A stretch of DNA of 64,000 bases, from the NCBI GenBank assembly GCA_018396535.1, contig JAGTQC010000002.1, positions 205,136 through 269,135 of the forward strand, in the 5' to 3' direction. A program made the translations under genes and the position numbers. This DNA comes from Candidatus Bathyarchaeota archaeon (lineage in GTDB: Archaea; Thermoproteota; CALKCG01; B24; DRYS01). Below, one piece after another: positions 51,538-53,831 of the stretch (positions are counted from its first letter, which is position 1; each line of letters begins with the position of its first letter). Below the pieces are notes generated by a model that made no database searches, had not been told where the DNA came from, and was given only the letters and a program-made list of their open reading frames with translations.

Positions 51538-51708
51538 TTGAGGATAGCAGGGCGGGGTAGACTTATATCATGCCCTAAATGCGGGTATAGATTCGATCTA
51601 ACGTATGCTAGAGCATATAGCTGCCAATCATGTCCCGTACTCATAGAGGATCTACACTGTAGCTATGTTAAATGTCCTAAATGCGGCTACGAATTCCCGC
51701 TAGGATAG
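51538..51708 (+). CDS. Small Cys-rich Zn-ribbon protein, 56 aa (not in ORF track)
   Basis: TTG start after GGTGGAG; MRIAGRGRLISCPKCGYRFDLTYARAYSCQSCPVLIEDLHCSYVKCPKCGYEFPLG. Confidence 0.85.
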   Translation: MRIAGRGRLISCPKCGYRFDLTYARAYSCQSCPVLIEDLHCSYVKCPKCGYEFPLG

Positions 51709-51793
51709 AAATAGTAGTAGTACCTGTATTTTAAGCTAGTAGAAAAGGTAAATATTAAAATAGTTGATCGTAGTAACATTTTAACCAAGAGTT

Positions 51794-52990
51794 ATGGGTT
51801 ATAGTAAAGGTGCATTAATATCGGATAGGTTATCTAGAGAAGAGGTAGTAAAAGCTGTAGAGGGGGAGAAGGATAGCCTCTCTAAGATAATTAAAGCTAT
51901 ACATGTATTCGGTCCTAGAAACTACACGGCTATATCTAGGATAACAGGTATTCCTGCAGAAACCGTAAGATACAAGATAAAGACACAGTTGAGGAATAGG
52001 GGTATAAGGGTATATGCTCATGTAGATTATGGTAGAATCGGATTAGCGAGGTATGCTTTGAGATTAAGGTTTAGCCATGAGGTAGAAGCTTATGCACCTA
52101 AGATTCTAGATAAACTAGCTGAGGTAGGCTATCTATACTATTATGGTAGGGTTATACCTAGATGGGAGTATGTATGTAATATAGCATTACCGCCGGATCT
52201 AGAGTTGAAGTATAGGGTATTCCTAGATGGATTGGTGGATAGAAGGATTATAGAATGGTATTCTATGAGTAGGTTAACCTCTGTAAGATACCTATCTATG
52301 GATACTAGGTTTTACGATTTCGATAGGGGTATATGGAGTATACCCTTCGATAGCGAATGCTACAACTATAGGGATGAATTAGAGGTATCTATAGAGGAGG
52401 ATGTATGTAGAGATCCACGTATAGATTCTATAGATCTAAAGATGATAGCATGGAGCCAGGTAGATGCCTATCTCTCACCGACAGATATAGCTAAGAGAAT
52501 TATGTGCGAACCTAAGAAGGCGTTATACCATTACAAGGAGCATATAGTTAAGCAGGGTATAATAAAGAGGTATATAGTATCCGCTGGATGGAGCCAGCAG
52601 GATATGAGGAGTATTATCATCAGGTTTGAAGGTATAGAGAGAGAGGATATAGATGAAGCTAGAAGGGTTATGGAGAGGATACCCTTTACAGTAAGGGATA
52701 CCGTTTCTGAGAATCCAGTAGCTTATACTTCATATCTAGTTATACCTAAGCAGTATATGATACCTGTAATCGAGTATATATCTGAAAGGGTAAGTACCAC
52801 TCTAAAGAAGTGTATGGAATATGAATTGATAGATTCGAAGATTCATCAATCCTATACTATACCATATGAAATGTATGACGATGATGATGGATGGATTTTC
52901 AATGTAAACGATACGTTATATATTATCGAAGAATACGGTAAACTAATGCGATCGGTAGAATACTCAAATACTCCATTACAATATGGTTAG
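51794..52990 (+). CDS. Tandem Lrp/AsnC-like regulator (two wHTH + RAM-like modules)
   Basis: HTH1 NYTAISRITGIPAETVRYKI, VDYGRIGL; HTH2 DSIDLKMI..DIAKRI..ALYHYKEH; each half ends in YDFDRGIW / YDDDDGW. Confidence 0.78.
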   Translation: MGYSKGALISDRLSREEVVKAVEGEKDSLSKIIKAIHVFGPRNYTAISRITGIPAETVRYKIKTQLRNRGIRVYAHVDYGRIGLARYALRLRFSHEVEAYAPKILDKLAEVGYLYYYGRVIPRWEYVCNIALPPDLELKYRVFLDGLVDRRIIEWYSMSRLTSVRYLSMDTRFYDFDRGIWSIPFDSECYNYRDELEVSIEEDVCRDPRIDSIDLKMIAWSQVDAYLSPTDIAKRIMCEPKKALYHYKEHIVKQGIIKRYIVSAGWSQQDMRSIIIRFEGIEREDIDEARRVMERIPFTVRDTVSENPVAYTSYLVIPKQYMIPVIEYISERVSTTLKKCMEYELIDSKIHQSYTIPYEMYDDDDGWIFNVNDTLYIIEEYGKLMRSVEYSNTPLQYG

Positions 52991-52995
52991 CGAAT

Positions 52996-53037
52996 TTAAT
53001 CTATAGGTATAGGTGCACCGATCGGTATTCCGAGCAT
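52996..53037 (-). CDS. Putative 13-aa micropeptide MLGIPIGAPIPID (25 aa if leaderless from ATG 53073)
   Basis: SD GGGGGAGGTG 6 nt before ATG 53037; in-frame upstream ATG 53073; BRE/TATA GAAAAA-TTTAATAA 24 nt upstream of that ATG; TAA at 52996. Confidence 0.55.
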   Translation of the reverse strand: MLGIPIGAPIPID

Positions 53038-53097
53038 ACTATACACCTCCCCCTTTTGGGTAGGGTTATTCATATTTGATGATTTATATCAGTTGGG

Positions 53098-53111
53098 TTA
53101 TTAAATTTTTC
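53098..53111 (-). promoter_or_regulatory. Archaeal BRE + TATA box for the micropeptide transcript
   Basis: Minus strand reads GGGAAAAA TTTAATAA with typical spacing to a start near 53073. Confidence 0.6.
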
Positions 53112-53176
53112 CCTTTTCACAAAGTCTTCTTGGAATATGTTTACGTTTTTTCCGATTTAGACTGATATAGGGGTAT

Positions 53177-53443
53177 ATGGTTTACCTATTTTTCGGTTTG
53201 AGCATCGAAGAACCTATTATGGATGCTATCTCGAGGATACTTTCGAAGCTTGCAGATGGTTTAGATGAGGATACAGTTTCTTCGGATAATGATTCTAGTA
53301 AGTTTATACCTATACTTCTTAGACTTGGCCTACTTGAGATTCGTAGAGTTGGTGGTAGGAATGTATATGTAACTAGTGTTAGAGGTAAGGTTCTGCTCGA
53401 AGAGTATGGATCGTTTAAGAAGAGTTTTTCTAATATTGGCTGA
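53177..53443 (+). CDS. Small winged-helix protein (ArnR1/HTH_45-like; start may be ATG 53219)
   Basis: ILLRLGLLEIRRVGGRNVYVTSVRGKVLLEEY wHTH wing motif. Confidence 0.7.
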   Translation: MVYLFFGLSIEEPIMDAISRILSKLADGLDEDTVSSDNDSSKFIPILLRLGLLEIRRVGGRNVYVTSVRGKVLLEEYGSFKKSFSNIG

Positions 53444-53504: not shown

Positions 53505-53831
53505 TTGAGTAAAAGGTTTGAGGATGTATTCGAGGAGGCTGTGGATAGGGGGCTATCTATCGTAGGAAATATCGCTAAAGAAGTCGTTTTACATCTTATG
53601 AGTGAATTCTATGGTGTGAAGAAGGGTTGTATGGGGTCTGATCCGTGTAGGGTTCATGATGCTCTTGTAAGAATACTTGGTGATGGAGCTAAGTTCGCTG
53701 AGAAGAGTATAGTATCGGCTTTATGTGAGCTCATAGGTTTAGAGCCTGTAGCGATTAAGGGGAAGGGGTTCCTTGAAATTATCGAGGAGGCTAGGAGGAT
53801 CTATGAAGAGAAGATTAACCCATCTATTTAG
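53505..53831 (+). CDS. DUF3227/NitrOD5-like small protein
   Basis: EAVDRGLSIVG..AKEVVLHL...DP..HDALVRILGDGAKFAEKSIV. Confidence 0.7.
   Translation: MSKRFEDVFEEAVDRGLSIVGNIAKEVVLHLMSEFYGVKKGCMGSDPCRVHDALVRILGDGAKFAEKSIVSALCELIGLEPVAIKGKGFLEIIEEARRIYEEKINPSI

Follow-up and report, generated by a model that had tools for sequence, protein, structure and literature searches.

In a 64,000-nt stretch of archaeal DNA (hereafter the window), a 13-residue micropeptide and the double-Lrp protein encoded beside it probably form a cognate ligand–receptor pair that would be RRNPP/LCP-like in action and based on an unrelated fold. Judged from the sequences, the locus looks like an archaeal peptide-signaling pair of an undescribed type, the export signal of which was lost in the window lineage. 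The locus carries a cassette of two genes, the peptide is under coding constraint, its relatives include precursors of the secreted type, and a conserved box lies beside the peptide promoter.

The host is a hot-spring Bathyarchaeia genome (1.41 Mb, 93% complete), and the genomes closely related to it carry the label Bathyarchaeia, near the B24 lineage. The regulator gene (51794..52990, + strand), which is single-copy in this genome, encodes a protein of 398 amino acid residues with a fused wHTH-RAM-wHTH-RAM architecture, proposed here as a peptide-sensing transcription factor. A putative TATA box of this gene (51753..51760, + strand) was inferred from the sequence, and the same AT-rich box was found in L002, L003, L054 and L056. 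The micropeptide gene (52996..53037, − strand) encodes the leaderless 13-aa peptide MLGIPIGAPIPID and ends 5 nt beyond the regulator stop (52990), with the two genes arranged tail-to-tail. Re-checking of the sequence placed the micro-ORF, its Shine-Dalgarno (SD) sequence and spacer, an upstream in-frame ATG and the BRE-TATA exactly where the earlier note had put them. The SD sequence (53044..53053, − strand; 6-nt spacer) keeps its core in six relatives, and its 10-mer occurs once in the window and four times in the genome. The BRE-TATA (53098..53111, − strand) is invariant in the same six relatives, and equivalent boxes were found across the clade. The surroundings of the locus consist of housekeeping ORFs (tRNA-synthetase-like, eIF-2B-like and polymerase-like). 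In a metatranscriptome assembly of a close relative, which is unstranded and may contain DNA, the regulator was covered at depths of 41 and 18 and the peptide gene was covered to 53066, with the flanking genes at 2–8; three raw-read RNA runs gave zero reads at the locus.

All six members of the genus-level group retained the start, the stop, the SD core and the BRE-TATA. Within the core-only groups, third codon positions accounted for 22 of the 38 variable sites (p = 0.0016), a bias that lasts despite regulators down to 63–69% identity within the genus. On these comparisons, the micropeptide gene is a real 13-codon gene under coding-type constraint. The alternative 25-aa form that had been suggested for this gene stood in part: the upstream ATG is present at 53073 (53071..53073, − strand), near the expected transcription start, and in four of the six relatives (not in L002 and L003), but the extension is polar, variable and not signal-like. 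The 13 aa are therefore the conserved unit, and the longer form is possible in four relatives and would be dispensable. The acidic end that had been ascribed to the peptide was not conserved, being A or L in relatives. The complementarity of Gly and Pro codons explains why the opposite strand (53000–53102, + strand) also reads G-A-P-I-G-I-P in the frame of the regulator; the motif has two stops before it and no start.

More than 100 homologous loci were gathered, and a tree of 115 rows was built, in which the window protein fell inside a 57-row clade (SH-aLRT 99, by a quick method). A small peptide gene with its own ribosome binding site, convergent with the receptor gene, was present at 55 of the 56 testable rows of this clade; the rows include kin and near-duplicates but represent about ten deep lineages. 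The one exception was L094, and the sequence of L047 ends at the stop. As a background, a loosely defined SD-led convergent micro-ORF was found behind 27 of the 1155 long ORFs of the home genome (2.3%). In the first search, all nine homologues with more than 35% identity had a convergent micro-ORF ending no more than 40 nt from the regulator stop. The earlier note had held that its model would fall if homologous regulators lacked adjacent micro-ORFs; the search for such a lack revealed a near-universal micro-ORF under coding-type constraint. In the other half of the tree, a similar peptide gene, located upstream on the same strand, was called by hand at 22 of 55 testable rows, some of the calls being uncertain; since many homologues outside the clade showed none, a linked peptide is not a constant requirement of the double-Lrp fold. 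The family as a whole comprises 248 clusters at 50% identity (E < 1e-30) and was found in 94 of the 400 genomes sampled from the phylum. The genome G007 carries two cassettes with different peptides, each of which clusters with its own orthologues, and the core sequence varies by lineage and goes with the regulator, not with the genome of the host. A GDP-containing micro-ORF on contig C8 was also considered and was rejected as the end of a 352-aa protein.

Most peptides outside the home order began with basic residues, followed by a hydrophobic stretch, and had a core rich in Gly/Pro at the C-terminus. The secretion signal followed by a C-terminal mature peptide, as in RRNPP propeptides, was recognized in most outgroup relatives, where signal peptides were judged from hydropathy and by eye and not by SignalP, and is missing from the 13-aa form of the window. 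The 13-aa ORF, which has neither signal nor processing sites, as is the case for LCP genes, coincides with the repeat unit or core of these secreted relatives. The core is carried twice in L073, L074, L077 and L078. The largest array was encoded in genome G197 by L110:259-579:+, a 106-aa precursor in which a signal-like stretch is combined with six slightly varying Gly/Pro cores of 10 residues in tandem and with a helical tail; its gene is convergent with a double-Lrp gene and is preceded by the same operator half-site as described below. The first unit of this precursor, GAPIGAPVPL, was identical to residues 3–12 of the window peptide at 7 of 10 positions, a level of match reached at 3 of 2.8 million six-frame genome positions, both strands of this locus accounting for two of them. 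Because relatives such as L110 carry the same core on signal-type and multi-core precursors, the window peptide is read as a bare mature unit, and these forms point to an origin as a peptide signal. As further observations on precursor form, two tandem acidic cores were seen in L073, L074, L077, L078 and L098, and L065:2998-3057 encodes a peptide that has no signal and repeats its core internally.

Of the 20 testable rows from the subclade of the home order, 18 were core-only, and the signal was kept in two (L006 and L059). L059 has its first three residues and the core in common with L005 and L057, the hydrophobic stretch being the difference. On the tree, signal presence changed state at least four times, and the AU test rejected a single core-only clade, a group that was named after the tree had been seen. 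Because signals are carried by the surrounding lineages, the changes were more likely losses; the signal may have been regained in one subgroup. Core-only genes were also found in family f29 and at several upstream-type loci. Separate lineages with signal-less peptides of 10–15 aa, convergent or upstream, included L128, L130, L131, L134, L136 and L142 (all f29) as well as L137, L141, L165, L167 and L168. Family f18 (L135, L138, L143, L144, L146, L148 and L150) has precursors of 45–46 aa that begin with acidic residues, continue with a long hydrophobic stretch and end in a tail containing Lys; they represent a distinct peptide class within the same regulator clade.

Directly 5′ of the peptide BRE, between the peptide gene and the wHTH gene, a conserved two-part box (53112..53153, no strand assigned) was identified as a candidate operator. 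The box is conserved in two genera and in other families, and its promoter-proximal half, TTGTGAAAA, recurs across further genera and families, L110 among them. A clear inverted repeat with a 16–17-bp spacer is formed by the box in several lineages; the distal half is degenerate in the window. A PWM trained without this genome scored 50.7 at the box and 20.4 at the next best site, and the search of the genome with this matrix gave no credible second operator, so that no wider regulon is visible. A candidate on contig C13 was rejected, being internal to the coding sequence of a tryptophanyl-tRNA-synthetase-like protein. The binding sites of archaeal Lrp activators are located a few bp 5′ of the BRE (PMC2995911). 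As the candidate box sits at this very place, autoactivation is the simplest inference, namely that the regulator would bind the 53112–53153 box and activate the peptide gene.

Two genes divergent from the peptide gene, both candidate targets, follow the box. The first (53177..53443, + strand) encodes a small wHTH protein of 88 amino acid residues (HTH_45/ArnR1-like), and the second (53505..53831, + strand) encodes a DUF3227/NitrOD5-fold protein of 108 amino acid residues. Both neighbors had been described as wHTH and DUF3227-like from the letters, and structure matches agreed with this. The 88-aa protein has no Pfam match itself and matched HTH_45 clusters of the Atlas (TM 0.71–0.77), and the equivalent place in relatives is taken by HTH_45 genes. 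The AF2 model of the 108-aa protein matched PH0832 (2P9X; TM 0.73/0.80, probability 1.0, E 0.13), with NitrOD5 as the Atlas lead (0.87). On the far side of the box, relatives carry HTH_45, KaiC, MinD/ParA or TackOD1 genes, and the neighbors are often of a signaling type (also NitrOD5); NitrOD5 and TackOD1 have been reported to be output domains of response regulators (PMC5847659). The divergent wHTH and NitrOD5-fold genes are likely targets of the regulator.

The candidate operator at the peptide promoter would by itself be sufficient to explain the linkage of the two genes if the peptide were the output of the regulator and not its ligand. A metabolite-sensing regulator would then switch on a peptide whose action lies elsewhere, be it on another receptor, in a surface or antagonistic role, or on the wHTH/NitrOD5 proteins. 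This agrees with amino acids being the usual Lrp ligands (PMC2995911) and with the pocket co-variation analysis of 16 sister pairs, in which RAM-strand residues had changed no more where the peptides differ (p = 0.91, at low power). However, no other gene is constantly found beside the peptide across the clade, the peptide follows the regulator and not the host genome, and a cytoplasmic target encoded by the linked gene offers the easiest explanation for the repeated loss of the signal with the core kept. We consider the output reading unlikely, though it is the strongest of the alternatives.

For the regulator, the tandem wHTH+RAM architecture deduced in the earlier note was borne out by the AF2 model (pLDDT 90.2) and by fold searches, and the N-terminal wHTH plus RAM unit of Lrp/AsnC proteins is present twice. 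The two halves gave no significant alignment to each other when compared half against half. Pfam matches of the regulator family were to HTH families only, with an HTH_AsnC-type match in 23 of 25 members. The family profile matched Lrp/AsnC regulators, among them ST1022, LrpA and LrpC (E 1e-13 to 1e-10), and a few other HTH regulators. Both HTH regions are conserved, and R59, D214, H246 and H250 are among the most conserved residues. A TPR-type peptide-binding domain was not found in the regulator, the confident model being alpha/beta RAM plus wHTH with NirDL and Lrp proteins as top matches. On the model, the protein is read as a DNA-binding pseudo-dimer, and its fused chain of 398 residues differs from the ∼15-kDa homodimer-forming monomer of canonical Lrp proteins, which take up their amino-acid effector at the interfaces between dimers. 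The analogy with amino-acid-binding RAM domains is only a lead, as the nearest solved architecture is the NirDL enzyme, the catalytic motif of which is lacking here.

NirDL was the top solved fold match (Z 17.3, rmsd 4.9, 294 aligned residues, 11% identity), followed by single Lrp proteins, and this match would favor an enzyme of the NirDL/AhbAB type, which might decarboxylate sirohaem or, alternatively, tailor the micropeptide as its substrate. NirDL/AhbAB (PDB 4CH7, 4CZD; PMC4145669) have the fused double-Lrp architecture in common with the regulator, as well as a central cavity able to hold a large ligand. The identity is low, however, and the regulator lacks the catalytic HxYxR motif (PMC4145669), which is present in just 2 of the 115 homologues; NirDL/AhbAB sequences stay outside the matches of the family profile, no gene in the genome scored above the cut-off for PF17805, and no haem-pathway genes were seen among the flanking genes. 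With both HTHs conserved and a candidate operator in place, an enzymatic role is quite improbable.

About equally improbable is a vestigial micro-ORF, that is, the decaying remnant of a once-secreted peptide after signal loss. It would account for the missing export signal and for the degenerate upstream extension. But every core-only member has an intact start, stop, SD sequence and promoter, the third-position bias persists while regulators diverge within the genus, and core-only forms are maintained in several separate lineages.

Least probable of all is an antisense or structured RNA directed against the regulator mRNA, with the ORF incidental, a possibility already raised in the earlier note: the 5-nt gap without a U-tract 3′ of the peptide stop makes it probable that the convergent transcripts overlap, and base-pairing between the SD sequence and the ORF is feasible (L054 shows one compensatory pair), but whole-transcript folding was no stabler than that of shuffles (z −0.97), only one of 17 pairs was compensatory and the covariation term gave no support (six close sequences, modest power), Rfam gave no match, the structure is not common to other genera, Gly and Pro codons are naturally complementary, and signal peptides and in-frame core repeats are unexplained by an RNA function. 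A small 5′-UTR hairpin overlapping the start of the SD sequence (53049..53065, − strand) is weak, is confined to the genus-level group and shows no compensatory change. Antisense overlap may add tuning to a peptide mechanism.

Returning to the ligand–receptor pair, peptide binding would probably cause the double-Lrp protein to activate the peptide promoter and to control the divergent small regulators. In the ancestral circuit, the signal peptide would export the precursor, the Gly/Pro core would be released and re-imported via Opp/Dpp-type transporters, and the cytoplasmic double-Lrp protein would bind it, the likely site being the cavity between the two RAM domains, where the same architecture holds sirohaem in NirDL/AhbAB. 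The two HTHs would then occupy the box just 5′ of the BRE and activate the peptide gene in a positive feedback, and the divergent wHTH and NitrOD5-fold genes would probably be controlled by the same protein. In the secreted relatives, this would amount to cell-to-cell signaling with re-import. In the window lineage, the signal would have been deleted and the core would be produced ready-mature. A self-reinforcing switch that acts within the producing cell, possibly sharpened by the overlapping convergent transcripts, is slightly favored over Sec-independent export as in bacterial LCPs. Three SBP_bac_5 (oligopeptide-binding) genes are present in the genome; such genes are common, and nothing specific is shown by them. 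A complex prediction with regulator residues 12–392 scored 0.11 against a mark of 0.32, in a run without controls in which the peptide was a 30-residue stop-to-stop frame (the 13-mer, the 12-aa extension and five upstream codons that are probably untranslated).

Several known systems resemble the cassette in part. As in RRNPP systems (Rap-Phr, PlcR-PapR, NprR-NprX, Rgg-SHP, PrgX-PrgQ and AimR-AimP), precursors with a signal and a C-terminal core adjoin the regulator in relatives, oligopeptide uptake genes are encoded and autoregulation is plausible; unlike them, the regulator has no TPR and no homology and belongs to a different domain of life, and the cores are of about 10 residues with up to six per precursor. 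Receptor and peptide transcription are convergent in prgX/prgQ, as at this locus. With the LCP systems (RopB-SIP of Streptococcus pyogenes and the RopB clan; PMC10518010), the locus has in common an ultrasmall SD-led ORF beside a cytoplasmic HTH regulator, and a mature hydrophobic peptide without secretion signal and with lineage-specific sequence codes. LCP receptors, however, are HTH+TPR proteins of Firmicutes, whereas the receptor candidate here has a double-Lrp fold and an archaeal host, and LCP peptides are mostly aliphatic/aromatic and 8–10 aa long, compared with 11–15 aa and a Gly/Pro-rich composition here.

Compared with archaeal Lrp/AsnC proteins (Ptr2, LysM, Ss-LrpB and FL11; PMC2995911), the regulator shows the wHTH+RAM modules, sequence homology and a candidate site just 5′ of the BRE; yet those are 15-kDa monomers with sites of 13–17 bp, whereas two diverged modules are fused here and the conserved box is about 40 bp. 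The Lrp effectors listed in the same source are all amino acids or small metabolites, in contrast to the gene-encoded peptide proposed here. The system would be RRNPP/LCP-like in action, yet has no TPR receptor, and would depart from canonical Lrp proteins in architecture and in its proposed ligand. Archaeal cell-to-cell signaling, as proposed here, has a counterpart in the disk-forming-signal quorum sensing of Haloferax volcanii, for which the signal is unidentified, the readout is two-component, and neither a peptide gene nor an Lrp receptor is described (PMC13464002). That paper, of July 2026, states that archaeal quorum sensing is largely unexplored, and in a literature search covering few subscription papers no paper describing such a cassette was found.

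On a chance we put slightly above even, the locus is the minimal version, with two genes and 13 residues, of a widespread archaeal family of peptide communication, with Lrp-fold receptors independent of RRNPP, with peptides ranging from multi-copy secreted to bare leaderless forms, and with lineages switching repeatedly between cell-to-cell signaling and private action or leaderless export. If so, the range of Lrp effectors would widen from amino acids to gene-encoded peptides, and the secreted-to-leaderless transition known from Firmicutes would have arisen independently and repeatedly in archaea. The cassette offers a named candidate signal, receptor and operator, which can be tested in vitro without culturing the host.

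Some further features were observed around the cassettes. Viral contigs were searched and gave no relative and no promoter match, and a suspected integrase beside L008 had no Pfam match. A 56-aa double zinc-ribbon ORF lies just 5′ of the regulator (window 51538–51708, + strand) and was also called in L189, L190 and L192; in one lineage, a TFB (TFIIB) gene stands immediately 5′ of the regulator (L090:2914-3858 and L091:29-934). Just 5′ of double-Lrp genes at which peptides were undetected, a C/D-box sRNA-like element was seen (L157:1351-1404, L160:2731-2784 and L163:2760-2813), matching Rfam sR1/sR14 below the gathering score with E about 1e-4. The two cassettes of G007, L008 and L015, are located near tRNA genes (L052, tRNA-Thr; L053, tRNA-Arg and tRNA-Ser), and tRNAs flank L065, L069–L072 and L075 too, which hints at insertion hot spots.
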